A DNA stretch of 64,000 nucleotides from a virus (IMGVR_UViG_3300033072_001097:1-64000); one strand, 5' to 3'. Positions 37,008 through 57,585 are shown, counted from the stretch's first letter. Notes: generated by a model from the sequence alone, not told the origin. Numbers and translations: made by a program.

Positions 37008-37936
37008 AGGTAGACAAAATTACCGACCGGCTCGCGTAATGGTAATTGTTGTTGTACAACATCTGTGACTATTAGCGTGCCGAACCATAATAATCGTTGC
37101 CGGAGCTGAACCACAATGACGTGTCTGTCTAACGCTTGTAGCATCTTATCTACGTCTAACGAGGATGGATGGTCTGAGAATAATAGGTACTCAGCGTTCG
37201 TGTTCCGGATAACATCATTGATCACTCTGAGATCATATGGGATAACCAAATGGGCGTTATTGTCTATGGGGTAGTCACCACTAATCTGGATTAATTTGAC
37301 CTGGTCACAACATACACCTTTGGCTATATGAAACGGGAGGTCGTCAATATTCTTGGAGCGATTTGACTGATGTTCTCTATGGAAATGAATTCCGGTTTGT
37401 TTGGTTGTCGGGCATCCGGCTCGAATTAGCCGTCGCCAAAATACCCAATCTTCGTGGCAATTGAGAGGTGGTGTGGGATAGAAAGCATCACTTATTTCGA
37501 TGCTCTGTCTACTCACTAGACTGGCTACTGCCAAATAATTTTCTTGTGATATACATTGTTGATGATAGAATAGTTTGCGATCGATGTTGCCAAATTGTTG
37601 TACATCGCAATATACGATATTATTGTCTGTTTTGACCGCTAGGCCAGCGGCAATATAGTCATCACTGATAAAGTCGTCAGCGTCTAAGAAACAGACGACT
37701 TCTTTGGTGGTTTGTTCAAATCCAGCTTTGCGACTAAGAAAAGGGTTGCCGTATTGTACCTGTAGATATGGGAGCAGTGTAATGCTAGGTTTGGTCTGGT
37801 CGTATACTATTAATATCTCATCTGGCGGGACTGTTTGGGTGCAAACACTGTCCAGAGCTTTGGGAAGGTATTGATGATATTCATCACAGCATGTGATGAC
37901 AACGCTGACAGTGCGTTTGTGGTTGTCTAATATCAT
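37004..37936 (-). CDS. Glycosyltransferase family 2
   Basis: VSVVIT, FLDADD, EDWVFW. Confidence 0.85.
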   Translation of the reverse strand: MILDNHKRTVSVVITCCDEYHQYLPKALDSVCTQTVPPDEILIVYDQTKPSITLLPYLQVQYGNPFLSRKAGFEQTTKEVVCFLDADDFISDDYIAAGLAVKTDNNIVYCDVQQFGNIDRKLFYHQQCISQENYLAVASLVSRQSIEISDAFYPTPPLNCHEDWVFWRRLIRAGCPTTKQTGIHFHREHQSNRSKNIDDLPFHIAKGVCCDQVKLIQISGDYPIDNNAHLVIPYDLRVINDVIRNTNAEYLLFSDHPSSLDVDKMLQALDRHVIVVQLRQRLLWFGTLIVTDVVQQQLPLREPVGNFVYL

Positions 37937-38609
37937 GATTATTCAGTATGTTGAAGGTGAAGTTACTATCTTTGAAGTGAATGGGAAGATATATTATTTC
38001 AGAGATTCACCGAATTTTCCAGAATTGTTTGACGATCAGTTACACAAGTTGATTGTTCCGAATCTGGATCATTGGATTCAAGCTGCCACTGATCAGCGGC
38101 ATTCCTTGCGTGGGTTACAAGATATGAGTGTTGCGTTCTTAGCTGGTCTTCATTGTGGTGTTTCCGATCAGGATGCACATATTTTAGTTAATAATACAAT
38201 CAATGCGACTAGACAAATGATTTTCCACACGGATCTTGCTAATCGCTATGGGCGTATGTATTTCATTGAGTTGATTGACCCAACCAAAATTGAATCTGTG
38301 CATACAAAGTCTATTGCGGCAAATTTTGATAAGTTGTTAGAAAAATGCGGTCGCACAAAGTTGTATAATTATCTATGTAGGTTTTGGCAAGCATGTAATT
38401 ATACATTGCCGAGTGTGGCGGCTGTTTTTGAGGCTTTTATACGCCGATTGGGTTTACAACCGACGACTCCTGAATATCCAGAGACTGGTGATTTAGATAA
38501 TGAATTGAAAGAGAAAGTGTGTCGGATGGTGTTTAGGAAAATGTCGGTTTATCACATTTCAGATGAAATGATTATCAATGCCAGAAGAATTCAAACCCGA
38601 AGAATATAA
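37935..38609 (+). CDS. Hypothetical protein
   Basis: ORF leading into the dnaE operon; probable start MIIQYV. Confidence 0.6.
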   Translation: MIIQYVEGEVTIFEVNGKIYYFRDSPNFPELFDDQLHKLIVPNLDHWIQAATDQRHSLRGLQDMSVAFLAGLHCGVSDQDAHILVNNTINATRQMIFHTDLANRYGRMYFIELIDPTKIESVHTKSIAANFDKLLEKCGRTKLYNYLCRFWQACNYTLPSVAAVFEAFIRRLGLQPTTPEYPETGDLDNELKEKVCRMVFRKMSVYHISDEMIINARRIQTRRI

Positions 38610-39996
38610 AGGTCCTACCGAATTTGTTCATTTACATAACCATACCGTCTTCTCTGCTTTAGATGGTGTGGCGACGCCAGAACAATATGCTGAACAATGC
38701 TTCAGTCGTGGCTATCCGGCTATGAGTGCCACTGAACATGGGCATATGGCATCTGTCCCGGATATGTATTTGGCGTTCAAGAAGCACGGAATAAAGTATA
38801 TTCCAGGATGTGAAATCTATTTCAACGACTACGAACCACAACGCCAGGAATTGGTTGCTTCTGGTTTCAAAATTCGTTCTAAAGAGTGGCGTGAACAAAA
38901 TCCTGACTTGGCATATAGAATAGGTCGCAACAGGCATCTGACCATATTATGTAAGAATGAAATTGGTTTTCATAATTTGGTTCGCCTAACTACGCAGGCT
39001 TATGACACTGGTCTGTTTGGGATGGGGCGTGCCCAATATAATCGAATATGGTTTGATAAATTATGCGAGTTCCGCGAGGGCTTGATTGTTTTGTCGGGGT
39101 GCCTGAACGGACCGGTATCACACGAGCTGCGACATAAACAACTTACCGATCGTGAAGGTAAAGTTGTATTTGAGCGGAAAAAACGTGAGCGGGTAGATGC
39201 GGCTGTCGATTATATCAAGAAATTTCGTCAAGCCTTTGGTGAGGATTTTTATTTAGAAGTCCAAATGCCAGGCATCCCGGATGACCACAAAGTCTTTCAC
39301 CATCTGATAACTATTTCCGATATGTATAAGATTCCGGTGGTGTTGACCAATGACTCACATTATCTAAATCGGGAAGACTTTATATTACAAAAATTGATGA
39401 TGGCCACCGCTCAAGAAACTACTATCGATTCACCTGATTTGTTTCATGTAAACAGTGACGAGCAATTCATGAAATCCCGTGCGGAGTTGTGGGCGACTTT
39501 TCGAAATGGGGAATATTGTAATGGGGTGAGTGACAGCGTCTTTGAGCAGCTATGTGACAATTCATTAGTAATCGCTGACCGCTGTGAAAAATTTAGTGTC
39601 GATACTAGTCCTAAGATTCCGGAAATCAAAAATGCCGATGATGAGTTGCGCATGATTGTTGCGCAAGAATTGCATCGTCGAGGATTATATAAATGTGATC
39701 AACGATTCCTGATTGATGGTAAAGAGGTATCATACGTCCAACAAGCTAAAATTGAATTGCAACGCTTTATCGATAAGGGATTTGCCAGTTATTTCTTGAT
39801 TACTCGCGATTTGATTCAATATGGTAAGAAGAGAGGTTGGCCATTTAGCCCGCGTGGTAGTGCCGGTGGTTCACTAGTATGCTTTTTGTTGGGGATTCAT
39901 GTTTTAGATCCGTTGTTATGGGGTTTGTCGTTCGACCGTTTTCTGGCTTCTAGCAGAGGCGGATACATGCTCAATACTCGTATGCCGAATGAGTAA
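38578..39996 (+). CDS. dnaE: DNA polymerase III alpha, N-terminal part (PHP domain + start of palm)
   Basis: FVHLHNHTVFSALDG, TEHG, GCE, NDSHY, GFASYFLI, PRGSAGGSLV, FDRFL; ends before PDIDxD. Confidence 0.92.
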   Translation: MPEEFKPEEYKGPTEFVHLHNHTVFSALDGVATPEQYAEQCFSRGYPAMSATEHGHMASVPDMYLAFKKHGIKYIPGCEIYFNDYEPQRQELVASGFKIRSKEWREQNPDLAYRIGRNRHLTILCKNEIGFHNLVRLTTQAYDTGLFGMGRAQYNRIWFDKLCEFREGLIVLSGCLNGPVSHELRHKQLTDREGKVVFERKKRERVDAAVDYIKKFRQAFGEDFYLEVQMPGIPDDHKVFHHLITISDMYKIPVVLTNDSHYLNREDFILQKLMMATAQETTIDSPDLFHVNSDEQFMKSRAELWATFRNGEYCNGVSDSVFEQLCDNSLVIADRCEKFSVDTSPKIPEIKNADDELRMIVAQELHRRGLYKCDQRFLIDGKEVSYVQQAKIELQRFIDKGFASYFLITRDLIQYGKKRGWPFSPRGSAGGSLVCFLLGIHVLDPLLWGLSFDRFLASSRGGYMLNTRMPNE

Positions 39997-40002
39997 GGAA
40001 TT

Positions 40003-40485
40003 ATGGGATATTACACACTAGCCGAGACTTTAGCAGAATTGAAGCATTCTGTGTATACGCATGTCACACTCCAAGCTGGCCCGAGTCCACAATTATCAGC
40101 ATTTTTAGTAAAGCTCTTGGATACTACCGATGATCTGTGTGGTATTATCGATGGGAAGCAGGATAGAGAAGTAGCATTGAAACGCATCAACGAAGAATGT
40201 GCTTTGTTAGCTTTTCATGTCATTGAAGCTTTGGCGGTATGGTTACAGCGAGTGGTTGATGATCGTAAGGCTAAAGCACGATCGCGTGGTGAGAATTTTC
40301 CAGAGAATGTTCAACATTGTAGTGATGGCCTGATGGTGTTGGTTGGTAGAACGCGAAGTTTTCCCGACAAACTAGCTGCTAAGAATGCTGTGCTTCGTGG
40401 GATTGCTGAGGTCTTACGAGCATTGCAAACCTATACGAAGTCAACATATCCAGAAATACGCGATGTTAAGAATAATCTATTATGA
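40003..40485 (+). CDS. Hypothetical helical protein
   Basis: ORF between the dnaE parts; AAGGA RBS. Confidence 0.6.
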   Translation: MGYYTLAETLAELKHSVYTHVTLQAGPSPQLSAFLVKLLDTTDDLCGIIDGKQDREVALKRINEECALLAFHVIEALAVWLQRVVDDRKAKARSRGENFPENVQHCSDGLMVLVGRTRSFPDKLAAKNAVLRGIAEVLRALQTYTKSTYPEIRDVKNNLL

Positions 40486-40928
40486 TTGATGTCTATTGTG
40501 CAGTGTCTGCTGAGAATGTGGAGGAAATCACACAGCTGACTAGCTGTGGTATTTTGTTAATATTTCAAGATTCTCCTCATATTCGTTGTAGACTGATGGG
40601 ATATGGGCTGGGGGCATCGTCGCTAGAACTAGCAAATATCCAGGCGATGAGGTTGGCATTAGCGTCAGTAAACCCGGCTTACCGTCGATCCACCGTGCAT
40701 ATACATGTGGCCGATGAGAGTGTGCTTCAATTATTGGCGTCTCCTGAACCATCCGAGGCTGTTAGTGCGTTATTGTGCTGGTGTGAGTATTATACTGATT
40801 TGGGTTTTATAATCGAGTCTCCAAATAATGAAAACATGATGGTATGCCGTTCGTTGGCACGAGATATTTGTGCTACCCAACAAACATACGATTCTCGAAC
40901 TTTGGATCACCTACCATATGAACGGTAA
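40482..40928 (+). CDS. Degenerate RNase HI-fold protein
   Basis: Layout ELANIQAMRLAL...VHIHVADESV...NENMMVCRSLA resembles RNase HI, but the catalytic acids are not conserved. Confidence 0.45.
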   Translation: MIDVYCAVSAENVEEITQLTSCGILLIFQDSPHIRCRLMGYGLGASSLELANIQAMRLALASVNPAYRRSTVHIHVADESVLQLLASPEPSEAVSALLCWCEYYTDLGFIIESPNNENMMVCRSLARDICATQQTYDSRTLDHLPYER

Positions 40929-41325
40929 GATCGATTTTAAGGCTACAGCTTTCATTTTAGTTAAACCGCCTAGCCGAATTATTTCACAACATAAGCTGAA
41001 AAACGTAGCCGAATATCAAGATTTACTTGATAAGGCTATCGCTAGTAATTATTGCTTATATTCTGCACCGATTGTTAAACGCAACGGTACATATATTGCT
41101 ATACAGCCATGGCAGTTGCATATGGATACTATTCCGCGATTGGATGTCAATGAAGAAGAACCAATTACCGTGTCAGCGGAGCCGGATCAACTGTGTTGTC
41201 CATTCTGTGATAAGCCGGTCGCCAGTACACCCGGACGAACATTACATGTTAAAAGTAATCACGCTGATCGTTTTGAGGAATACCAACAGTGGCTGAAATC
41301 TCTTGGGAAGAAATCAAAAAAGTAG
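40918..41325 (+). CDS. C2H2 zinc-finger protein
   Basis: CPFCDKPVASTPGRTLHVKSNH. Confidence 0.6.
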   Translation: MNGKIDFKATAFILVKPPSRIISQHKLKNVAEYQDLLDKAIASNYCLYSAPIVKRNGTYIAIQPWQLHMDTIPRLDVNEEEPITVSAEPDQLCCPFCDKPVASTPGRTLHVKSNHADRFEEYQQWLKSLGKKSKK

Positions 41326-44024
41326 CAGCTACTGCTTTGCTGAAGCGGAAATGTCCGCCGCAATATACAGCTAGACTCAAATTCGAATTAAAAGAAATAG
41401 AGAAACAGGGTGCCATCACATATTGGCAAAACCTGTATAGTGACGGCAAGAAGTTCAAATCGAACCCTAGCTTTCTACTCCTACCATGGCTGTTGGGGAT
41501 GGTCCAAGAGGACCCGATTAAGACTCGCACTGTGCCTATGCTTAATTCTGTGCGGGCATCCACCGTTGCTGAATTCTTTAAAGAAAATGGATATATCCCT
41601 GTAGACTTAATTAAAGATCCTGATCAGCCCGACATCGATATTGATTGTCTACCAGAAGCCCGCGACCCGATTAAGGATTATGCTACCGAAAAATATGGGG
41701 CACATATTAAAGACGGATATGGGGCAGTTTGCAGTGTCGGGACTTGGCAGACGTATAAGTTTAGATCTGCTATTATCGACGTCAGTGCTGCTACTGGTTG
41801 GTTAGATAAACAAGAAGCATTGGCACTCACTACTACTCTTCCAGACAATGTGGACGAATTAAAAGACGGTGGCAAAGCCGCTTGTAAAGGCCGTATCATT
41901 GGAGCTGATACCGGCGAAGACGTCGAATGTGGCTTCATGCATGATGATATCAAATGCCCTAAATGCGGGTCTGTTGATACCGACGGTATCACCATAGGAA
42001 AGCTGCTGCAAGAACACGAAGCATTATCTGCATTCGCCCATAAGCATCCCAAGATTATCGAATATGCTGTGAAGCTGGTCGGGCGTGTTCGCAATATGGG
42101 TATGCATGCTGGTGCTCTCATTATTGCCGATCGCTCATTGTATGGGAATATACCGCTTGCTAAGAGTAATAAGAAGGGTTATTGGATTAGCATGTGGACG
42201 GAAGGCCGAAATACCCAGCTATCCAAATTTGGATATGTAAAATGGGATATTTTGGGTCTGAAAACGCTGAAGTATATCTTCGAATGTTGTAAATTGATTG
42301 AGCAGAATAGAGGTATTTCGTTCGGTAAGAACATGGATGGGTGGGACGATATTGACCCATCACAAAACCGCGCTGGTCATTTTTTTGACCGCCATGGCAA
42401 TAAACGATATATTGAACTGAACGACGAGTACGTCCTGAAATTAGCGAACGCACAAAAGACAGACGGTGTATTCCAATTCGATACCGATCTTGCTAAAAGC
42501 ATTTTGAAAAATGGTGTTCGCAATTTTGAAGATTTGATGCTCTTCAACGCTATGGGGCATCCAGGGCCGATGGCTTCTATACCAGAAGCGGTGGCCAATC
42601 GTGATGACCATCGCGGCGTCTGGAAGAATAAGTTACATCCTGATATCTATGAGGTGTTAAAGGACACCTATGGTGTCATCGTTTATCAAGAACAATTGCA
42701 AGCGATTTGGCAAATGGTGGCAGGATTTACGGCCCCTGAAGCTCAAGAAGCCCGGAAAGCGGTGGCGAAGAAGTGGACGCATAAGCTGAAACCGATTCGT
42801 GAGAAGTGGATGAAAGGTGCCGCCCGCGTCCTAGGCGAACGAGAAGCTGAACAGTGGTGGGCGAAAATGGAGACGTTTGGTCGGTACGCATTCAACCGTT
42901 CACACGCTGTCAGCTATTGCTTGGTAGCCCATCGTTGTTTGTGGTTGAAGGCTCATTTTGCCCCCGAATTTTGGGCGGCGGTAATGAGCGATTGCCATCC
43001 TGATAAATTGGTTCGTTATATGGGTGTGGCCCGTTCCGAGAATTGGGAGCCGACGGACATCACATATTGCGGGACGTTTCAACCGAGTGAACGTAGCAGA
43101 GGTGTAAAATTTGGTACAATCAATATAGAAAATCTCACTGCGAGTTTTACCGTTACAGGCGATGTGGTTAATCAAGGATTAATTGGTGTCAAGGGGCTTG
43201 GTGAAACAGCGGCGAGTGTATGGACTGGGCAGCGCAAATTTACTGGTCTAGATGCTCTGGTCGATTTGATGGGTAAGGATAAGACTGCCTTTGAGAGGTT
43301 TATCAAGTTAGGTGCCTTCAAAGAATTTCCAGGATATGAGAATTCCAAAGCTACGTGGGAATATTACCGCTATAAATATTGCACTGGGAAGGATATAACA
43401 GCTCTTAAGAAAGTAATTCGCCAACAGTTGTTAGAGGTAGATGGTTGGAATGAGGAAACCATCAAAGCTGAACGCGAACGGCAAGTTGAAGAATATCTCA
43501 AATCGTACCCCAATCGCCGCAAGATCCCTGCAAAATTGCAAAATTGGGCTCCTGTCCCAGACGACTCTGTCGCCAAAGTGATGGCTTTATTTCCGACAGA
43601 TTTCGAATTGCATGAAGTGTTACAATTTGAGAAAGAATATCTTGGATATTACTTGCATTCGCCATTGGACTTATATAATACTAGAGGTAATTGTACTATT
43701 GAAAACGCGAAATTAGCGTCTAAAAAGCACGGTGAAGCTGGTCTGGAGGGTGTGGTGGTGGATTTCCAGACAGCGGAATCTAAAAATAAAAACATCTATG
43801 GTCGATTGATTTTGAGCGATGGTATTCAAACGACCTTAGTGCTGATATTTGGGAAGCAGTTGCAAATGCAAAATTTGGAGCTGTTCAGACAAGGCACTGG
43901 TATCCAATTGATTGTAGAATATGATGAGATGCGGAATACCTTTAGTTTGGCACGTGGTGAAATTATAATTAAATTGTTGCCGAAAACCGATCAACACCAG
44001 CGTGCCGCTAAAGCAGATAAATAA
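41289..44024 (+). CDS. dnaE: DNA polymerase III alpha, catalytic C-terminal part
   Basis: PDIDID, GMHAGA, KWDILGL, GVFQF, VYQEQ, YAFNRSHA, EKEYLGYY, OB fold. Confidence 0.92.
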   Translation: MAEISWEEIKKVAATALLKRKCPPQYTARLKFELKEIEKQGAITYWQNLYSDGKKFKSNPSFLLLPWLLGMVQEDPIKTRTVPMLNSVRASTVAEFFKENGYIPVDLIKDPDQPDIDIDCLPEARDPIKDYATEKYGAHIKDGYGAVCSVGTWQTYKFRSAIIDVSAATGWLDKQEALALTTTLPDNVDELKDGGKAACKGRIIGADTGEDVECGFMHDDIKCPKCGSVDTDGITIGKLLQEHEALSAFAHKHPKIIEYAVKLVGRVRNMGMHAGALIIADRSLYGNIPLAKSNKKGYWISMWTEGRNTQLSKFGYVKWDILGLKTLKYIFECCKLIEQNRGISFGKNMDGWDDIDPSQNRAGHFFDRHGNKRYIELNDEYVLKLANAQKTDGVFQFDTDLAKSILKNGVRNFEDLMLFNAMGHPGPMASIPEAVANRDDHRGVWKNKLHPDIYEVLKDTYGVIVYQEQLQAIWQMVAGFTAPEAQEARKAVAKKWTHKLKPIREKWMKGAARVLGEREAEQWWAKMETFGRYAFNRSHAVSYCLVAHRCLWLKAHFAPEFWAAVMSDCHPDKLVRYMGVARSENWEPTDITYCGTFQPSERSRGVKFGTINIENLTASFTVTGDVVNQGLIGVKGLGETAASVWTGQRKFTGLDALVDLMGKDKTAFERFIKLGAFKEFPGYENSKATWEYYRYKYCTGKDITALKKVIRQQLLEVDGWNEETIKAERERQVEEYLKSYPNRRKIPAKLQNWAPVPDDSVAKVMALFPTDFELHEVLQFEKEYLGYYLHSPLDLYNTRGNCTIENAKLASKKHGEAGLEGVVVDFQTAESKNKNIYGRLILSDGIQTTLVLIFGKQLQMQNLELFRQGTGIQLIVEYDEMRNTFSLARGEIIIKLLPKTDQHQRAAKADK

Positions 44025-44583
44025 GTTTATGCAAACCAGCGACAAAAGCGGCATAATTTGTGACCTTTGTAGTATCTCCTTCAGAGATGATTTTATATAT
44101 TATTCTTTTGATTTTCGTCATGCTGTTGTCACAGATGGGCGAATACCTAGCTTAGATACTCTCAGGCATACTCATGTGACATGCTCGTTGGATATATGCA
44201 CTGCATGTTTCACAAATATTAGCCAGACTGTCGTGGAGAATTATAAGAAGATTATGTCTGGTACTAGAAGAGCGAGGCCACCACATATTTGTGAATTAAC
44301 CGGGTCAATGATGTCTGGTAATTATAATTATTATTATTGTGTTATCACGAAAGCGAATGTGCAACTGACTGGGCAACCGAATATTTGCACTAAGTGTCAA
44401 AAGAAGGCATATGAAGCGAGTGTTGTTTGTGGCTGTGGTAATAAGACTTTCATACGGCCAGCGTTAGTGAAAACCGACAACCGCTTTTTAGAATTCAGTC
44501 TGTCAGAACAAGCGTTTGTAAATCTCCGACGGAAAGCTGAAGAAGTCCGTAAATCAGCTGGTAGTTGGACAACAGAATCATGA
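44002..44583 (+). CDS. Cys-rich hypothetical protein
   Basis: Several CxxC pairs. Confidence 0.6.
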   Translation: MPLKQINKFMQTSDKSGIICDLCSISFRDDFIYYSFDFRHAVVTDGRIPSLDTLRHTHVTCSLDICTACFTNISQTVVENYKKIMSGTRRARPPHICELTGSMMSGNYNYYYCVITKANVQLTGQPNICTKCQKKAYEASVVCGCGNKTFIRPALVKTDNRFLEFSLSEQAFVNLRRKAEEVRKSAGSWTTES

Positions 44584-44590
44584 GGTTCTA

Positions 44591-45172
44591 ATGTATAACC
44601 CATATGACCTTATACCGATGGAAATAAATGGTGTTCCGACATATGGACGCCCCACAGAATTTGATTCTGAAATAACAGATTTCGAAAAAATGGAAAATGC
44701 TTTTGGCCATCCTGTTAAACCTAAGAAACTATCCACCACATGCCCAGGTTGTGGGCAGGGTTTGGAAGTGGAAGTTAAGCTGGCCGATCCACCGTTTTCT
44801 GTGATTACACATACTTGCCAATATTGCTCTCCGGAGGTCGAAGCACCTGCAGACCCGTTCAGCAATCCGCTCGAGACTGGGCGTATGGCTTTTCATGAGT
44901 TAGATCCTTTATTGCATAATCCTAATGCGCAGGTTGTTCCGCAATCGAAATCTGTAGCTGATAGGGTCGATATATCTAAGTTGGCATCTATTTCCGAGCT
45001 TCCAGAAGGCCCTCCCGAAAATTCACAACTAGTTGTGGATGAGAACTTGGTGCAAGCTCTCGAACTTAAGAAGAGCAAAGGGAAAAAGCGGAAGACCATC
45101 AAGAAGGTAGAACCAGCCGAAGGATTGGAAGAAGAACAATTTTTTGATGACGACCTGGCGGAACCAGAATGA
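44591..45172 (+). CDS. Hypothetical protein with Zn motif and acidic tail
   Basis: CPGC...CQYC. Confidence 0.6.
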   Translation: MYNPYDLIPMEINGVPTYGRPTEFDSEITDFEKMENAFGHPVKPKKLSTTCPGCGQGLEVEVKLADPPFSVITHTCQYCSPEVEAPADPFSNPLETGRMAFHELDPLLHNPNAQVVPQSKSVADRVDISKLASISELPEGPPENSQLVVDENLVQALELKKSKGKKRKTIKKVEPAEGLEEEQFFDDDLAEPE

Positions 45173-46116
45173 ATGTTATTTTCGGCTCCGGCGTAGTAGG
45201 ATTATTAGCACGAAAAATTTTGGGGCCTTCTTGGAAGGTGGTCCCATTTTATCGCAGCCGTTTCTTTTCTTTCAACCCAGCTTTAGATGATAATTTTATT
45301 ATTCGAGATGACCAGCTAGACCCATTTATTCATGATTTATACGGACAATCATTACCAATATATGTCTACAAACGTGCTTGGTCAATCGGTGGACAAATCA
45401 TCCCAGAATACAATTCTGGTTTGTGTAAAGACTGGCTTGCGAAGATATTTGGCGGAGAAATACCACCACAGAGTGAGGTATATCATGCAAACCGCATGAA
45501 CTTGTTTGTATATGATATTCGTGTCAATGGATTATATCAAAATCTAGTCAACGAATATTTGGACGACTTGAAAACTGAGGCCGCTAGAGGCGAAGTGACG
45601 GCTATAGGCGATCATTTCTTTGTGCGTGATGGTAAGCGTGAAGACTTCGACAATGCTGTTAGTACTATCCCATTAGATTCTCTTTGTAAACTAATGGGTG
45701 TCAATGTTTCTTTGCCATCCAAAACAGCCCATTACCTGCACATCGAGACAGATGTGTTGAATTTCGAGGGATATAATCAATTACTTGTTGTTGATGGTGT
45801 CTTTTCATTTTTCAAAGCGACAAACGTAGCAAGTAATAGATACCTGGTCTATTGCCATGAAGAAATACCGAATCCTGGTATCTATTTCATGGGTTTCTTG
45901 CCTAGATTTGATATTATTGATGGAACCTCGATAGAACATGCTATTCCTATGGGTTCTTGCCCCAAATTAGATAACGTGGAACGGATTGGTGTTTATTGCG
46001 TTGGTAGTTATGCTCAATGGGATTGGTGTATGGACGTAGGGAGTTGCATACTAAGACTACTAAAATACGCTCAACGTGAATTCAAGCCAGCTCCTATGAA
46101 GACCGTTTTGCCATGA
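45169..46116 (+). CDS. FAD/NAD-dependent oxidoreductase-like protein (UDP-galactopyranose mutase/amine oxidase fold)
   Basis: IFGSGVVGL, AVSTIPL, VGSYAQW...MD. Confidence 0.6.
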   Translation: MNVIFGSGVVGLLARKILGPSWKVVPFYRSRFFSFNPALDDNFIIRDDQLDPFIHDLYGQSLPIYVYKRAWSIGGQIIPEYNSGLCKDWLAKIFGGEIPPQSEVYHANRMNLFVYDIRVNGLYQNLVNEYLDDLKTEAARGEVTAIGDHFFVRDGKREDFDNAVSTIPLDSLCKLMGVNVSLPSKTAHYLHIETDVLNFEGYNQLLVVDGVFSFFKATNVASNRYLVYCHEEIPNPGIYFMGFLPRFDIIDGTSIEHAIPMGSCPKLDNVERIGVYCVGSYAQWDWCMDVGSCILRLLKYAQREFKPAPMKTVLP

Positions 46117-46925
46117 CGCAGTCGAAATATCAAGTATTTAAAGATCGTCTAAAGCATGTTGATATTCCCGACGTTGATTCCCATCCGTCGGCTCTAGAGT
46201 CATTCGATTGGTTCAATTTTGTGAGCACCGCTCCGTCGGAGGTATTTGTGCCAGATTTTATTAGTATTATTGACGTTGAAGGGAAAGAGACTGTCCGCGA
46301 ACGACATCTGCGAATGTTGCGACAATTATCAAGCACTTGTACGGCTTGTTCGATGTGTGAATTGGGTTTGAAGGGTGCAGAGAGAAATGGTTCTGTGCGT
46401 GACCCACATGTGCTCAGCAATAAGAATCCATCGCCGTTTTTCATAGTAGGTCAAAATCCGGGTTGGAACGAGTTGGAGAAGCGAGAGCCATTTGTAGGGG
46501 CGGCTGGGGCCAATTTTAATGAAGAGATCGCCAAGCATGGCGTTGATAGGGATTGGTTTTATATTTCCAATACTGTCCGTTGTTATACCCAAGACAATCA
46601 AAAGCCGACACAGCGGCATATGGATAGATGCGAGCCGTTTTTGCGGATGGAAATTGGCTTAATGAAGCCAAAATTAATCATTACTTTGGGTGCGGTTGCA
46701 TTCAATCAGCTATGCCCCGATGCTGATTACAGCACGTCTTTGAAGAAAATCACCAAAAGTGTGAAGTTCGACGTATCTGTCTTTGCTATATATCACCCAT
46801 CACCGCTCAATTTTCGCGACAGTAATCGCAGGGATGCATTCAACGAACAGATCCGAGTGATGTGTGGTTTAATAAAAGCTATTAGGGCTAAGACTCTTCC
46901 GACTCTTCCTGATCAGACTTGTTGA
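46113..46925 (+). CDS. udg: Uracil-DNA glycosylase family 4
   Basis: CSMCEL, VGQNPG, PFVGAAG, SNTVRC, CEPFL..EI, YHPS. Confidence 0.9.
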   Translation: MTQSKYQVFKDRLKHVDIPDVDSHPSALESFDWFNFVSTAPSEVFVPDFISIIDVEGKETVRERHLRMLRQLSSTCTACSMCELGLKGAERNGSVRDPHVLSNKNPSPFFIVGQNPGWNELEKREPFVGAAGANFNEEIAKHGVDRDWFYISNTVRCYTQDNQKPTQRHMDRCEPFLRMEIGLMKPKLIITLGAVAFNQLCPDADYSTSLKKITKSVKFDVSVFAIYHPSPLNFRDSNRRDAFNEQIRVMCGLIKAIRAKTLPTLPDQTC

Positions 46926-48173: not shown

Positions 48174-49973
48174 GTGGTAGACCAATCAGTTGTGGGGGCA
48201 CCCATTGTCGATACAGCTCAATGGCTGAAAGATCTACGTCAGGGCTTTTGGCGTGGTCAGTCTTTTGCGCATATTGACGAAACATTGCAGAAATTGTTGT
48301 TTGCGAAATTCTTCGCAGAAGATCGTGGTCTACAATTCACTGCTGATAATTATATAAATATTTATGATGATGCTCGCGAAGATTATCACTCCATGACGAG
48401 CGTAGACATGGGTGGCTTACCTGAGTCTATGGTAGCCGAGCCATATAATTATCTAAACACAATTGAAATGATCGGGCAGGCACAAGTTTCTGCCGACCCC
48501 GGCATTTGGCATATCATTAATAATCTATGGACTGAACGTAGTCTACGCAAAGAGGATGGCCAATATTTTACCCCATATGCTATCAAGCGGTTTATGTGCG
48601 AGATATACCCTCCAACCGTAGACACCAAAATTTGTGATCCATGCGGTGGGAGTGGTGGATTTGTCATCATGGCGGCAGATATGCTGCCGCAGATTGAACC
48701 AGATAAATTTTACTATTACGATGCCGACGGCGAAAAAATCGTCAGAGTAGCCAAACGAGCATTCGTGACTTATAAACATCATACCACATTACAGAATCTT
48801 ATTGGTATAAATATTGCTGTCCATAATTCACTGGACGACGTATGGCACTGCAAAATGGATCGGATTTATACCAATGTTCCTTTTGGACATAAAGTAACTG
48901 CGGCCACCAGGAGTAAAAACGGGCAACGTCTGTTGTTGGGTTATGATGTTGGTAGAGAGAAATCCAGTGAATTATCACAATTATTGTTTATCGAGAAGTG
49001 TATCAATCAATTGGAAGACGGCGGTCTATTCGCCACTGTAGTTGATAAAGGTATTGTTACTAATCATAAATATACCCGCGAACGAGCGATATTGGCTAAG
49101 AAAGCTGCTTTGGAATTAGTTGTAGAATTACCAGCGGCTGCTTTTGAACATTTTGCTGGGACCACATTTCCAACATTCTTGTTGTTCTTTCGGAAAGGTG
49201 TACCCACTTTCACCAGATATGAGAAGGTACAAAATATTGGATATTCTGCAACCAGTTATAATATTGTCGATGAGAATGCCGGTCCTTTCGACTCTAGTCT
49301 AGAAGACGTGAATTATAACAATTGTGATTTATCCACGATCGTGCAGCGTTGGCGGTCTAAACAATGGCCGAACCATCCGGATAGCGATCATGATTTCCCA
49401 TACTCTACTACAGAATCTGGGAATTGGTTATGGGGGTATTGGAAATATGAGAGTGTTCAATCTCAACGATTGCGAGATGTAGCTCAATTGGTTACGGCTA
49501 AGTGGAGTGGTGAAAACGACCGCAATCCTACTGTTGATCGCAAATATCGATATGTCAAAGAAACGCATTTAAAGCCGAAAGCGAAATCCAAGACTAGAGC
49601 ACTTAAAGCCAATTGTTTATTGATGAGTCGGTTATTGTCTGGGAAGCAAACGCCCGCTTGTGGTGTAATTCCCGAAAAATATCACGATGCCGGATGTACA
49701 AATGAGAATTATATTATCAAAGCCGATGATACACATTGGTTGGTAACGATTTGGTATCTGATAAACTTTGACAATTATTGTCATGAATATCTATGGTCGC
49801 ACTGCCGTGGCCAGGGACGTGCCCGTATTATGGTGGATGATTTGCTGGCTATGCCTATTCGTGAGTTGACTACCGAGGAGATGAGTCGGGCAAAAGATTT
49901 GATCGATAGTTTGAATAACAAAATGTGGATAGACGAAATTATAGAACAGAAATTTCATTGTATTAATAAATAA
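48174..49973 (+). CDS. N6-adenine DNA methyltransferase (HsdM-like) fused to a TRD-like C-terminus
   Basis: GQYFTP, DPCGGSGGF, TNVPFG; C-terminal RLRDVA...RGQGRARI..DDLLAMPI. Confidence 0.8.
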   Translation: MVDQSVVGAPIVDTAQWLKDLRQGFWRGQSFAHIDETLQKLLFAKFFAEDRGLQFTADNYINIYDDAREDYHSMTSVDMGGLPESMVAEPYNYLNTIEMIGQAQVSADPGIWHIINNLWTERSLRKEDGQYFTPYAIKRFMCEIYPPTVDTKICDPCGGSGGFVIMAADMLPQIEPDKFYYYDADGEKIVRVAKRAFVTYKHHTTLQNLIGINIAVHNSLDDVWHCKMDRIYTNVPFGHKVTAATRSKNGQRLLLGYDVGREKSSELSQLLFIEKCINQLEDGGLFATVVDKGIVTNHKYTRERAILAKKAALELVVELPAAAFEHFAGTTFPTFLLFFRKGVPTFTRYEKVQNIGYSATSYNIVDENAGPFDSSLEDVNYNNCDLSTIVQRWRSKQWPNHPDSDHDFPYSTTESGNWLWGYWKYESVQSQRLRDVAQLVTAKWSGENDRNPTVDRKYRYVKETHLKPKAKSKTRALKANCLLMSRLLSGKQTPACGVIPEKYHDAGCTNENYIIKADDTHWLVTIWYLINFDNYCHEYLWSHCRGQGRARIMVDDLLAMPIRELTTEEMSRAKDLIDSLNNKMWIDEIIEQKFHCINK

Positions 49974-52071: not shown

Positions 52072-52353
52072 ATGGACAAACAAATTAAAATATCTCGGTT
52101 CGATCAAGTTCGATTATTATCTACTAAGAATATCAAGTATTTATCAGCACCACCTGGCACACAAATATCCCCGCAGGGCATTTGGTCGGTGGCTGCTGTC
52201 GTCGGCGAAGAATTGTTGTTGGTAAAGAATAATGTTGTTATCAAAACACCAATCTCGGATGTGTTAAGAATAGCTAGTTACGACATTTCACGTATACTAG
52301 GTCGGTTAGGGAGGTTATCACGTGGCAAAGAAACCGGAAAAAGTGAAAGCTGA
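52072..52353 (+). CDS. Hypothetical protein
   Basis: ORF overlapping the recA start. Confidence 0.55.
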   Translation: MDKQIKISRFDQVRLLSTKNIKYLSAPPGTQISPQGIWSVAAVVGEELLLVKNNVVIKTPISDVLRIASYDISRILGRLGRLSRGKETGKSES

Positions 52354-53434
52354 TGTACCAAATAATATCAAAGATCTGCTAGATTATATGGACACCAAAT
52401 TTGGGGCCGGTGCCGTCATTAAGGGTCGGCATGCCATTATTGACGTAGACGCCTTCCCTACTGGGATCATCACCATTGATAGAGCCTTCGGGTGTGGTGG
52501 AGTCCCACTCGGTAGAATAATGGAATTATATGGAGCAGAGAGCAGCGGTAAAACCACTACGACATTGCGATTCATAGCTGCTTGCCAAAAGCACTTTTTC
52601 ACCAAAAAAGATCGCTATGGAGTGGCGGCATTCGTAGATGCTGAGCATGCTCTTGACCCTGAGTGGGCGAGTAAAAATGGTGTCGATATGGAAGAATTAA
52701 TCATATCACAACCGGATAGCGGTGAAGATGCTTTGAATATTGTGGAAGCATTCCTCAGATCCAACCAAGTGGATTTGATCATCGTTGATTCGGTAGCCGC
52801 CCTTGTGCCGAAGGCTGAATTGGAGGGGGAAGTCGGCGATCATCATGTGGGTGCTCAGGCCAGAATGATGAGTCAAGGTTTGCGGAAACTGAAGGGGGTG
52901 GCTTCTCACGCCGGGGCGACGGTGGTTTTCATCAATCAGGTACGCGAGAAAGTTGGCGTCGTTTTTGGGAATCCAGAAGTGACTCCTGGTGGGCGTGCTC
53001 TGAAATATTACGCGACAGTCCGGGCAGAAGTATCGCGTACTGGCGTCATTAAGCACAATGATGATTCCATAGGCATCAACACCAAGATCAAAATGGTTAA
53101 GAACAAGGCTGCTGCACCTTTCGCGATTGGTGAATATGATATTTGTTTCGGTAAGTCTGCTCGTCCTGTTTTCGGTATTGATCCTATTTCTGCGATGACG
53201 ATAGTTGCCGAAGAACTTAAGATATTATCTAAGAAAGGTAGTTTTTATCGTTTCGGGGATGTGTCTCTCGGAAATGGTGCGACCAATGTCGCGAATTTTT
53301 TGCGAGAAAATCCTGAAATCTATAGTCAGATTGAGCAACAAACCTATAGTAGCGTTTTTCACTGTAATGCTGCGAGAGTCGAAGACGCTTCCAGGGGTGT
53401 CGACGATATATTAGAAGAATTGGACGAAGAATAA
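52322..53434 (+). CDS. recA: RecA recombinase
   Basis: GAESSGKTT, FVDAEHALDP, SQPDSGE, IVDSVAAL, ARMMSQ, FINQ, TPGGRALK. Confidence 0.97.
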   Translation: MAKKPEKVKADVPNNIKDLLDYMDTKFGAGAVIKGRHAIIDVDAFPTGIITIDRAFGCGGVPLGRIMELYGAESSGKTTTTLRFIAACQKHFFTKKDRYGVAAFVDAEHALDPEWASKNGVDMEELIISQPDSGEDALNIVEAFLRSNQVDLIIVDSVAALVPKAELEGEVGDHHVGAQARMMSQGLRKLKGVASHAGATVVFINQVREKVGVVFGNPEVTPGGRALKYYATVRAEVSRTGVIKHNDDSIGINTKIKMVKNKAAAPFAIGEYDICFGKSARPVFGIDPISAMTIVAEELKILSKKGSFYRFGDVSLGNGATNVANFLRENPEIYSQIEQQTYSSVFHCNAARVEDASRGVDDILEELDEE

Positions 53435-53761
53435 ATGAACGCTCCTAAATACGATATAGGTGCTGTTGTTTATCTCAAGGAATCCGCTGCGATGGGTTTC
53501 TTGGAGGCGGTAGTGATTAGCGGCATCACTCACAACGGCTCCAAGTGGATGTATACTATTAGGGCTGGACGTGCTCAACCGACTGGTGTCGCCTATTACG
53601 GTGACCGTATAACTGCTGTTCATGCCAAGACGCTGTATTTCACGGAAGACGAATTTGTCACACATTGTGATGCCTTAACGTTAGCAGAGGCTAATGCCCA
53701 ACGTGCATTAGAACGCATACAATTACAAAGAGCCGGTTTGTGTCCGGATACTACTGAATAA
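53435..53761 (+). CDS. Hypothetical protein
   Basis: ORF coupled between recA and the helicase. Confidence 0.6.
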   Translation: MNAPKYDIGAVVYLKESAAMGFLEAVVISGITHNGSKWMYTIRAGRAQPTGVAYYGDRITAVHAKTLYFTEDEFVTHCDALTLAEANAQRALERIQLQRAGLCPDTTE

Positions 53762-55098
53762 TGGCTACTGACACTCTTGCAAAACTTGCCGAAGACGATG
53801 ATCAACCACACCGCCCATTTGGCCCATATGAAGAAGAAGCGATAGTCTCTCTCGCTTTAGATCACCCAGAATTTTTCACCGGCGTTGGTCGGTTCATGAA
53901 ACCAACCATGTTCAACCGGTTGGAGTGCCAATGGGTGATGGCGGAAATTCTCAATAGCTATGAGAAATATGGGGTGGTTCCTACTCGCCCCATGCTCAAG
54001 GATCGCTTATATCACTCTTTTACAGAGGACGATCCTTATGAACCAGTCATTGCTTTGGTGGAACGCCCATCAAATCCGCGAGAAATCCCGCTGGTCAAGG
54101 ATACCATGCTCAGATGGGCTAAAGATCGAGCATATGGATTGATATATAGCGAGGAGGCACAAGAAGCATATACTCGTGGAGATTACGAACATCTTGAAGA
54201 TCTGGTCAAGCAGGCCAATCGTATCGCCGATGTGGGGCAGAAAGGCTTCTGGTTCTTCGAAAATTATGAAGTCCTTTTTGAACCAGACATTATGGAGCAT
54301 CGGACTACTGGTTTTGCTAAATTAGACAGGATGTTGAATAACGGTGGTCCATCGCCGAAAGAGGTGGTGTGTTGGCTAGCCGGGACGAATGTGGGTAAAT
54401 CGATCTTACTATGTAATAACGCTATTTCGTCGCTACAGGGCATTGGTCCGGATGGAACGCCTGGACAAAATGTTTTGTTGATTACCTTTGAACTAGACAC
54501 ACTTAAAACTGCTATGCGATGTCTGGGTACTGCTACTGACATCCCTATGAATAATATTGTCGAGCATCAAGATTTTGTACGCCGCATCATTAGCAAGATG
54601 CAGAAGACGTATAACAAGCGATTTGCTATCTATGAGTGGGCTCCCGAAGAATGCAGTGTGTCTGATATCTATGCATTATTGGATAATCTATATAGAGTCC
54701 ATTCGTTCAAGCCGGATGTGATTATTATTGATTATATGGATTTGATGATTAGTCGCAATAATGCGTATAATAAGGATGATTATATTCGACAAAAACATAT
54801 AGCTGCAGAGCTACGTGGTTTAGCAAAAAATGAAAATGTTCTTCTTTTTACAGCCACGCAGACGAACAGGTCTGGTTCTAGTGGAGAAGAACTGGCGGAT
54901 ATGAACAAGGTTGCAGAGAGCTTTGGTAAACAGTTCGCTCTGGATTATGTTATTAGTCTCAACCAAAGCAAATCACAACGTTGTGCTGAACCACCACGAA
55001 TCACGATGTATATAGCTAAGAACAGAAATGGTCCACGTGCAGAACGTGTTGAATGTACAATAAATTATAACACCATGGTGGTTCGGGAGGAGATATGA
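53761..55098 (+). CDS. Replicative helicase (DnaB/T4 gp41-like)
   Basis: AGTNVGKS, ITFE, IIIDYMDL, TATQTNR, VAESF, AKNRNG. Confidence 0.9.
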   Translation: MATDTLAKLAEDDDQPHRPFGPYEEEAIVSLALDHPEFFTGVGRFMKPTMFNRLECQWVMAEILNSYEKYGVVPTRPMLKDRLYHSFTEDDPYEPVIALVERPSNPREIPLVKDTMLRWAKDRAYGLIYSEEAQEAYTRGDYEHLEDLVKQANRIADVGQKGFWFFENYEVLFEPDIMEHRTTGFAKLDRMLNNGGPSPKEVVCWLAGTNVGKSILLCNNAISSLQGIGPDGTPGQNVLLITFELDTLKTAMRCLGTATDIPMNNIVEHQDFVRRIISKMQKTYNKRFAIYEWAPEECSVSDIYALLDNLYRVHSFKPDVIIIDYMDLMISRNNAYNKDDYIRQKHIAAELRGLAKNENVLLFTATQTNRSGSSGEELADMNKVAESFGKQFALDYVISLNQSKSQRCAEPPRITMYIAKNRNGPRAERVECTINYNTMVVREEI

Positions 55099-56262: not shown

Positions 56263-57585
56263 ATGCGAGCGATATATCTCTACACATTATTGGATAAGAG
56301 GACGCACAAACCGTCTTGTGTTGGTATACAAATAGGTTCCGAAATAGTAATTAAAGAATTATATCGCCCAGGTGCTGGCAAACTTTTGGCTGATATTTTA
56401 GGATCTATCAAATACGTCCAAGATATTATTATTAGAGCCAATGATCGCAATATTCCGATTGTAACATCTGATTTCAAGGCTCAACTCAAAGCTCTTGATT
56501 TGCCGCTCTTACAGCAACCATATTCCGTATATGACTTGCATTTTCCTGTCTTCGATTCTACGGGCTTTGCCGATAGAGATGAGATGATATTGCGGCGGAT
56601 TTTAGAGAAGATGACCAAACAGACACCGCGTGAGTACCAAAAGATTCTTGCGAATGCCGCTGTCGTATATGAAGATCTGGAACGAACCGGCTTGGTGTTC
56701 AATTATCAGCATGTGGAGCCGATTTATTCACAACATACCTATTCTGGCCGTAGTAAAACGACCAAATTCAACATACAAGGGTTAGCTGATCAGGTGTATA
56801 TATGGCCAGCAAGTTGTAAAGATAGTTATATTTTATTACATTTCGATTGGATCTGTGCGGATATTCGAGCTGCCGCTTTGTTATCCGGTGATCAAAAACT
56901 GACAGACACATTTACGTCATCAGATCCATATACGCAGATGATGCACGAAATAAATGCTAATGCTTCTTCCACGATGACTCGAGAAGAATGCAAGCGATTT
57001 TTGTTGAAATCTATTAATTCTATGGACTGCCAAAGTGAACCGTTGACTGATATTTATCCTAAGCTTGGTCGGTGGATTCGTGGTTGTCGCAAAACGCTGA
57101 ATGATGGTGGGTTTTTGGAGACAGTTCTTGGTCGAAAATTCAGGCCAATGCAAGCCAAGAATAATTTGGCGGCACTTAATGGTGCAATGCAAGGATCTGT
57201 TGCACATGCCATGCAATTAGTAATCCGAAAAATTTGGGAAAAATTGGGTGCCAAGCTCGTTACTGAAATTCATGATTCTTTGGTTGTGTCGTGTGCTCCT
57301 AATCCGATACACGTAGATTATGTGATAAATACCGTTGCTGAAATCATGCTACGACCATTTACAGGCGTTTTAGATGATGATCCTGTATTTCCTGTTAACG
57401 TAAGCATGGGGCGTAAATGGAAGAAATGGAAATTGTGTCGTACGTATAGAGAAAGCGGAGTTACTCGTTGTGTCCAAAAACTCACCGAAGAAGACTGCAC
57501 GACGCAGAAAGCGGGAATTGAAGAAGCAACGGAAGGTGCAAATATCCCGGATCAAGGAAATATTGAAGACGCGACAGCAAGTTGA
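56263..57585 (+). CDS. Divergent family-A DNA polymerase domain
   Basis: SGR, motif A HFDWICADIR, altered motif B REECKRFLL, NGAMQGSVA, motif C EIHDSL. Confidence 0.75.
   Translation: MRAIYLYTLLDKRTHKPSCVGIQIGSEIVIKELYRPGAGKLLADILGSIKYVQDIIIRANDRNIPIVTSDFKAQLKALDLPLLQQPYSVYDLHFPVFDSTGFADRDEMILRRILEKMTKQTPREYQKILANAAVVYEDLERTGLVFNYQHVEPIYSQHTYSGRSKTTKFNIQGLADQVYIWPASCKDSYILLHFDWICADIRAAALLSGDQKLTDTFTSSDPYTQMMHEINANASSTMTREECKRFLLKSINSMDCQSEPLTDIYPKLGRWIRGCRKTLNDGGFLETVLGRKFRPMQAKNNLAALNGAMQGSVAHAMQLVIRKIWEKLGAKLVTEIHDSLVVSCAPNPIHVDYVINTVAEIMLRPFTGVLDDDPVFPVNVSMGRKWKKWKLCRTYRESGVTRCVQKLTEEDCTTQKAGIEEATEGANIPDQGNIEDATAS

Follow-up and report, generated by a model that had tools for sequence, protein, structure and literature searches.

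A C-family DNA polymerase encoded in two intein-free halves, with a duplicated palm segment, in uncultured jumbo phages

We analysed a 64,000-nt stretch of viral DNA (IMGVR_UViG_3300033072_001097:1-64000; the window), which makes up the first 64 kb of an IMG/VR virus record of 92.5 kb. CheckV estimates the completeness of this record at 25%, indicating that it is a fragment of a jumbo phage. Within a replication and repair module of this uncultured phage lies a locus for the C-family polymerase DnaE (Table 1). The catalytic core, a single polypeptide in DnaE as usually defined, is here encoded by two open reading frames (ORFs) 1.3 kb apart, and the other defining elements (PHP, the GRGS loop, the three catalytic Asp residues and fingers, HhH and OB) are all present across the two genes. 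Gene 1 (the N-half) ends shortly before the first catalytic Asp, while gene 2 (the C-half) starts with a degenerate duplicate of the last part of gene 1, which we call palmN'. Three small ORFs (A to C) lie between the halves. All five ORFs abut or overlap, and a scan for terminator-like sites found none at a gene junction.

Table 1. Features of the split dnaE locus and its surroundings, and stand-alone palmN' genes in related loci
Feature	Position	Strand	Description
Gene 1	38578..39996	+	N-half of DnaE, 472 aa; PHP and nucleotide-binding subdomain of the palm
PHP domain	38620..39477	+	Ligands H20, H22, D29, H54, E79, H120, C175, D259, H261
palmN	39640..39957	+	Gene 1 residues 355-460; canonical palm segment with YFLIT, PRGSAGGS, FDRFL
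C-terminal tail	39958..39993	+	12 residues, GGYMLN..MP.E, in place of the link to PDIDxD
ORF A	40003..40485	+	160 aa; helical protein of no assigned function
ORF B	40482..40928	+	148 aa; RNase H-like fold, catalytic residues not conserved
ORF C	40870..41325	+	151 aa; small protein with CxxC...H...H motif; subclade only
Gene 2	41289..44024	+	C-half of DnaE, 911 aa; palmN', catalytic palm, thumb, fingers, HhH, OB
palmN'	41289..41624	+	Gene 2 residues 1-112; degenerate duplicate of the palm segment, the first ~80 residues being the copy
PDIDID	41628..41645	+	First two catalytic Asp, D115 and D117; aligns with Taq PDIDTD 460-465
Cys4 insert in palm	41883..41966	+	C199, C214, C223, C226; modelled as short strands
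KWDILGL	42240..42260	+	Third catalytic Asp, D320; aligns with K(F/M)DFLGL of E. coli and Taq; invariant
Fingers (PF17657), HhH (PF14579), C-terminal OB fold	42267..43988	+	By Pfam; OB by structure match
UDG	46113-46925		Downstream of the DnaE module
N6-DNA methylase	48174-49973		Downstream of the DnaE module
RecA	52322-53434		Downstream of the DnaE module
DnaB-like helicase	53761-55098		Downstream of the DnaE module
Short PolA-like protein	56263-57585		440 aa; matches only the C-terminal part of PF00476
Stand-alone palmN' ORFs	L025:10114-10572; L030:4864-5259; L031:10322-10747		Proteins P0368-P0420

DnaE domains on two genes

Gene 1 encodes a PHP domain (PF02811, E value 1e-33) followed by the canonical palm segment (palmN), which matches PF07733 at profile positions 15-98. 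The protein aligns with residues 8-416 of DnaE1 from Mycobacterium tuberculosis (Mtb) up to the equivalent of FLNPER, where homology ends, and over this span all PHP ligand positions and the motifs YFLI, GRGSA-GSLV and F-RFL are matched. The nine ligand positions are invariant in 15 orthologues, and established knowledge of the PHP domains of Mtb and Thermus aquaticus (Taq) predicts that the domain in gene 1 is of the active proofreading type. The most conserved region of gene 1 is palmN, with a mean pairwise identity of 80% versus 70% for PHP; its PRGSAGGS motif (39850-39861; gene 1 residues 425-432) is invariant among the orthologues, which include proteins 82% and 75% identical to gene 1. 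In the tail that follows, G461, G462, Y463, L465, N466 and M469 are invariant in 15 orthologues, and the protein ends approximately five residues short of the equivalent of the catalytic PDIDxD.

Gene 2 matches positions 100-260 of PF07733 and the fingers family PF17657 (E value 1e-31), and its HhH match scores 25.1 bits, just below the cut-off of 25.6. The PDIDID motif is invariant across 40 sequences. An AlphaFold2 (AF2) model of gene 2 has a predicted local distance difference test (pLDDT) score of 87.9 and a predicted template modelling (pTM) score of 0.78; it matches DnaE structures at Z scores of 20-22, and residues ~800-900 match OB-fold structures (Z 10-11.7). The Cys4 insert is found in most of the clade, where it is nearly invariant, and is absent from a deep branch (L026-L029 and L034). 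In one locus, L007, it has an additional insertion of ~38 residues rich in Gly, Gln and Lys. Since the break lies approximately five residues before the first catalytic Asp, the nucleotide-binding loop ends up on one side of it and the metal-binding carboxylates on the other.

This anatomy agrees with a first-pass annotation made from the sequence of the window. The ORFs lie at the exact coordinates it gave and translate as quoted; Pfam and the Mtb DnaE1 alignment confirm that gene 1 is a PHP protein with metal ligands and palm motifs that stops before PDIDxD; PDIDID and KWDILGL of gene 2 align with Taq 460-465 and the third-Asp motif; and the Cys insert in gene 2 and the three ORFs between the halves were likewise described correctly. 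What it missed is that the intervening genes are conserved clade-wide, that purifying selection acts on the duplicate, which is often a protein of its own, and that relatives have real inteins at other sites of the same gene.

The N/C break is present in 32/32 related IMG/VR jumbo-phage loci (contigs of 20-408 kb), whose N-halves are 45-82% identical to gene 1. The two halves co-occur in every related locus examined, no fused form was found in the clade, and both halves are under strong purifying selection. A homologue search yielded 840 proteins of N-half length and 732 of C-half length; all of the 120 C-half homologues listed, from these 732, lack a PHP domain. Every longer homologue of at least 38% identity consists of an N-half plus inteins, without fingers or HhH. 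In this search no fused DnaE was found above 38% identity, and fused DnaEs appear only at 35% or below. The best tblastn matches of the region are intact DnaEs at approximately 32% identity, and a megablast search of GenBank phages with the region gave no match. Two independent studies provide DNA contigs that cover 38000-44360 and 38478-43121, gap-free and with 12-16 mismatches. The split is thus real and old, and runs through a large clade of uncultured jumbo phages. One relative of 354 kb (98% complete; G001) contains a single PHP and a single set of PF07733 pieces, with no further copy of PF07733; its sole C-family polymerase is the split enzyme.

The spacing of the halves varies within the clade. 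In G001 (C1:7649-9103 and C1:19134-26051), the N-half is followed ~10 kb downstream by the C-half, which is itself split near residue 538; tight linkage of the halves is therefore not obligatory. In L011, the C-half is 10 kb away from a cluster of the N-half and ORFs B and C, and in other loci the halves are ~1-4 kb apart.

The genes between the halves are less easily named. ORF A has no Pfam or PHROG match, and an Atlas search gave weak helical matches, none of them informative; its positional orthologues in 24 loci fall into two BLAST clusters (17 and 7). ORF B, with orthologues in 24 loci across the clade, has Atlas structure matches to RNase H families (template modelling score 0.75-0.81). 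In an alignment of the 24 ORF B orthologues no column is at least 85% conserved and the DEDD positions are not kept, so that this may be an inactivated, structural RNase H-like protein. ORF C has only weak zinc-finger matches in Pfam and orthologues in 16 loci; similarity among these mostly starts at residue 21, suggesting that its true start may be the ATG at 40918. Pfam and PHROG searches gave no match to an endonuclease family for any of the three. The ORF A and ORF B families each lie between the halves in 24/33 arrangements, clade-wide, and evolve faster than the polymerase halves (35-67% versus 62-82% identity). Mobile-element cargo was considered and rejected because ORFs A and B are kept in position throughout the clade. 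The intervening genes are conserved cargo, not homing endonucleases.

The duplicated palm segment

The first-pass annotation had read the start of gene 2 as a degenerate copy of the palm segment of gene 1. The sequences of this phage alone do not bear this out: BLASTP of the two halves against each other was not significant (E value 0.68), and residues 1-113 of gene 2 alone have no Pfam match. The duplication therefore rests on profiles, orthologues and fold, and at the level of the family it stands. On the profile phrog_405, gene 1 occupies positions 40-439 and gene 2 positions 357-1032, so that the two overlap. Likewise, the tblastn matches of both halves share a stretch of ~300 nt in intact phage dnaE genes. 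A hidden Markov model (HMM) built from 134 gene 2 N-termini matches 45 intact phage DnaEs at residues ~317-406 (per-sequence E values of 1e-5 to 2e-4), a span that covers GRGS and ends ~17 residues before PDIDxD, and hhalign places the gene 2 N-terminus profile on residues 355-447 of gene 1 (P 0.0016-0.008). Some related C-halves give direct Pfam matches: that of L029 matches positions 16-260 of PF07733 in one stretch (E value 2.5e-34), that of G001 matches positions 11-154, and the N-terminus of L026 matches positions 6-85 (E value 6.6e-4). Within the segment, the structural residues Y26, R29, L30, E33, Q40, G41, L63, D75 and P76 are retained. Where GRGS would be expected, palmN' has NPS/NxN (N59-x-N61), of which N59 is near-invariant.

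AF2 folds the palmN' module confidently (pLDDT 83-95), and the module (residues 1-108) superposes on residues 824-964 of PolC, the segment directly preceding the PolC catalytic strand, with a root-mean-square deviation (rmsd) of 3.7 Å over 86 residues (Z 7.8). Its placement relative to the palm is unreliable. In a truncated model, the linker has a pLDDT below 50 and the pTM is 0.51, so domain orientation in that model is not interpretable; palmN' has no confident seat at the canonical site, and fitting the model collinearly to E. coli alpha leaves an rmsd of 14-16 Å. Matches of the full gene 2 model to DnaE structures mostly begin at residues 88-110.

The mean pairwise identity of palmN' is 43%, similar to that of the HhH/OB region; the alignments thus indicate a segment that is less conserved, yet clearly constrained and under purifying selection. 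In a library-wide search with the palmN' profile, 191 representatives reach an E value of 1e-3, and the module is N-terminal in all of the best 150 of these 191. At least 20 of the representatives are proteins of about 123-138 aa. In L025, L030/L035 and L031, palmN' is a separate ORF of 131-152 aa and the catalytic chain starts near PDIDxD. The small palmN' proteins share a ~50-residue beta-rich tail that weakly resembles the intein splicing domain PF14890, below threshold (E value 0.0016-0.05), and in those relatives palmN' and PDIDxD may be separated by a split intein that is degenerate or atypical.

At the end of the stand-alone palmN' ORF of L030 (L030:5236-5500; L035 is alike), there is a 24-nt tandem duplication, with cttaagattggtgatgagatctga present twice. 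L030 also has an extra 7 nt, tagtgac, holding TAG and TGA, between ...HPDVPD and DIDIDY. This insertion shifts the frame just ahead of the catalytic Asp residues, and it may be a scar, a programmed event or decay.

Assembly of the polymerase and alternative readings

We consider it likely that this DnaE is a non-covalent two-chain enzyme with an active site assembled in trans, in which palmN' has been retained as a module for structure or assembly. The catalytic centre is probably made up by both chains. The replicase would then be an obligate heterodimer: gene 1 would supply the PHP nuclease for proofreading and the subdomain of the palm that, via R426-G427-S428 and R454, holds the triphosphate of an incoming deoxynucleoside triphosphate (dNTP), and gene 2 would supply the metal-binding D115, D117 and D320 together with thumb, fingers, HhH and OB. 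An active site would form only once the palm segment of gene 1 docks onto the catalytic sheet of gene 2. With its GRGS loop gone, palmN' would be maintained by selection as a folded module, most likely to stabilise or mediate assembly, or alternatively to cover the docking surface until the gene 1 product arrives. Because the two halves overlap, we infer an origin by duplication followed by complementary truncation. A heterodimeric C-family polymerase arising by partial duplication had been suggested in the first-pass annotation; the suggestion fits all the evidence, which bears on it indirectly, and the evolutionary route in particular would follow from the overlap.

Some points weigh against a two-chain enzyme of this kind. 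The K-F-x-x-N-x-N conserved in palmN' might in principle stand in for the GS loop and make gene 2 self-sufficient. The AF2 models in which palmN' is not seated in the palm are weak evidence, given the pTM of the truncated model. Finally, the RNA evidence for separate halves (below) is limited, as it stems from one sample, may include DNA and leaves 41094-41535 uncovered.

A related reading, which we regard as unlikely, gives palmN' a more active part: it would be a pseudo-subdomain that guards or occupies the slot for the nucleotide on the catalytic chain until docking of the chain with PHP and GRGS displaces it. If so, the polymerase would be licensed only together with its proofreading subunit, coupling synthesis to editing, and the helical ORF A and the RNase H-like ORF B could assist. 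The separate ~130-aa proteins would then mark palmN' as a detachable subunit, for regulation or assembly, of a C-family replicase built from several parts.

We find it unlikely that the halves have separate functions, with gene 2 a self-sufficient, PHP-less polymerase in which palmN' occupies the canonical slot and NxN/KF replaces GRGS, and with gene 1 an accessory proofreader or free-standing PHP exonuclease whose piece of the palm serves only for docking or stabilisation. This would account well for the collinearity of palmN' with the canonical segment, its shared fold, the near-invariant N59 and the C-halves that Pfam reads as a complete PF07733 domain, and trans-acting proofreaders such as E. 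coli epsilon are normal for C-family polymerases. It fails, however, to explain why conservation within gene 1 peaks at the GRGS segment, with R426, G427, S428 and R454 invariant: a docking stub would not need GRGS, and the GS loop is a defining catalytic element of Pol-beta-like nucleotidyltransferases. Nor does a canonical slot for palmN' agree with the AF2 models or with the relatives in which palmN' is a detached protein.

A core of four parts, loosely like alpha-epsilon-theta, in which the products of ORF A and ORF B are subunits needed to bridge or regulate the two chains, seems improbable to us. The position of both families between the halves clade-wide, their abutting or overlapping neighbours and an RNase H-like fold in ORF B without conserved DEDD, suggestive of a structural role, all speak for it. 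The basis is gene order only, however: A and B evolve faster than the halves, ORF B could still be a divergent nuclease, and in L011 the C-half lies well apart from the remaining cluster.

That the halves are rejoined, be it by an atypical trans-splicing split intein, by RNA splicing or by translational bypass of the 1.3-kb insert, is very improbable. The same gene does attract such elements, and atypical split inteins with very short N-parts exist. Ten related loci (L016-L020, L023, L024, L029, L032 and L033) have further interruptions, at N-half residues 78, 259 and 427/428 (GRG/S) and at C-half residues ~431, ~445-468 and ~537. Those that are inteins lie at sites other than the N/C break (N-half residues 78 and 259, C-half residues ~445-468), and the in-frame interruptions checked by Pfam (L017 and L032) are inteins with Hint, LAGLIDADG or intein-splicing domains. 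Other interruptions are split, with a 360-aa ORF (weak DUF790 match) between the pieces, resembling the 'fractured genes' of Dassa et al. 2009 (PMC2677866); such split-intein arrangements at GRG/S are found in L019, L023, L024 and L032. The weak HINT-like tails of the stand-alone palmN' proteins point the same way.

At the N/C break, by contrast, the first-pass annotation had seen no intein motifs, and this holds: neither half matches Hint or intein families of Pfam at E values up to 0.1, PDIDID is preceded by DPDQ rather than by HN-Cys/Ser/Thr, and the short gene 1 tail has no Cys or Ser start block. An atypical split intein with the gene 1 tail as short N-part and the gene 2 N-terminus as long C-part was rejected because that N-terminus is DnaE-like and because HN-Cys/Ser/Thr is missing before PDIDID. 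Against splicing or bypass, no Rfam family is matched within 38000-44600 at E values up to 1, and the insert holds three conserved ORFs under selection. RNA-library contigs of one sludge sample, which may include DNA, are collinear with the DNA: they run unspliced across the boundaries of gene 1/ORF A, A/B and B/C and show no joints, with 41094-41535, where the ORF C/gene 2 junction lies, uncovered.

The last alternative, an assembly error or a pseudogenised dnaE, might be suspected in a metagenomic contig estimated to be 25% complete, but is hardly credible and already refuted by the same arrangement in contigs of independent studies and in 32 diverged loci, and by the strong purifying selection.

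Known split polymerases and the surroundings of the locus

Intein-free splits occur in family B polymerases: the two-subunit PolB of Methanothermobacter and the split gene 43 product of some T4-like phages are non-covalent heterodimers. They resemble the present enzyme in being two-gene replicases and differ in polymerase family and fold. We know of no split family B enzyme in which the break separates the nucleotide-binding loop from the carboxylates or in which a duplicate is retained. C-family polymerases replicate bacterial chromosomes and have, to our knowledge, been studied solely as single or intein-religated chains. Single-chain DnaEs, such as Mtb DnaE1 (5lew/7pu7) and the T. aquaticus enzyme (2hpi/3e0d), have the same domains in the same order; here, these are divided over two polypeptides with the break ~five residues before PDIDxD, and palmN' and the Cys4 insert are extra. 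As for the putative origin, the Drosophila monkey-king model describes gene fission by duplication and complementary degeneration of a eukaryotic retrogene. Both cases involve two overlapping partial copies with complementary losses, and here the overlap persists as a selected module in an active-site domain.

The closest precedent lies in group 2.2 (T4-like) jumbo phages, in which Iyer, Anantharaman, Krishnan, Burroughs and Aravind described a minimal Pol III alpha module as two intein-free proteins, cut between an NTP-binding subdomain at the N-terminus and a Mg2+/template-binding one at the C-terminus, and predicted that the two together restore a single enzyme (Iyer et al. 2021, PMC7824862). 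The present enzyme shares this split-Pol III logic, with an intein-free break between FDRFL and PDIDID that corresponds to the published description. The minimal version lacks PHP and other Pol III alpha domains, its genes are distant from each other, and it exists alongside a family B replicase (PMC7824862). Here, by contrast, the full domain set from PHP to OB is present, a single operon holds both halves and the conserved genes that separate them, and the C-half retains the N-subdomain in a second, degenerate copy, which is often detached in relatives and of which no counterpart was reported there. The cyanobacterial split DnaE and the 'fractured genes' with split inteins and a free-standing homing endonuclease (Dassa et al. 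2009, PMC2677866) also have dnaE in pieces, and relatives of our phage have such layouts at other sites. The N-terminal pieces of the split inteins in that study are 88-105 residues long, as compared with the 12 residues of the gene 1 tail. Unlike in those systems, there are neither HINT motifs nor an endonuclease gene at the N/C break, so that the product cannot be religated, and the intervening genes are conserved cargo rather than selfish elements. We found no description of a full-length split with a duplicate in the literature, which is weak evidence of novelty given the incomplete coverage of the search.

If assembled as we propose, this would be a natural and widespread enzyme with its dNTP-binding loop and its catalytic carboxylates on different polypeptides, and a Pol-beta-like palm put together in trans would bear on how this fold evolves. 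It would also be a clear viral case of gene fission with retention of an overlapping duplicate, and could give split-polymerase engineering a naturally occurring system, in which the coupling of PHP proofreading to synthesis could be tested as well. Annotation is affected as well: half-size calls of 'DNA polymerase III alpha', which number in the hundreds in metagenomic phage genomes, are not fragments.

Sequence near-identical to 38000-44600 (share of sampled words 0.75-1.0) is present in metagenomes of nine studies, from sludge, activated sludge, freshwater, aquatic and soil sources, and in two metatranscriptome runs of one sludge sample. Downstream, the replication and repair module continues with the genes listed at the end of the window's entries in Table 1. 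The ORFs that directly flank the DnaE module gave no meaningful match in a Pfam search; that upstream (37893-38609, 238 aa) keeps its position in 11 related loci and that downstream (44002-44583, 193 aa) in 14, suggesting that the conserved operon may extend beyond five genes.

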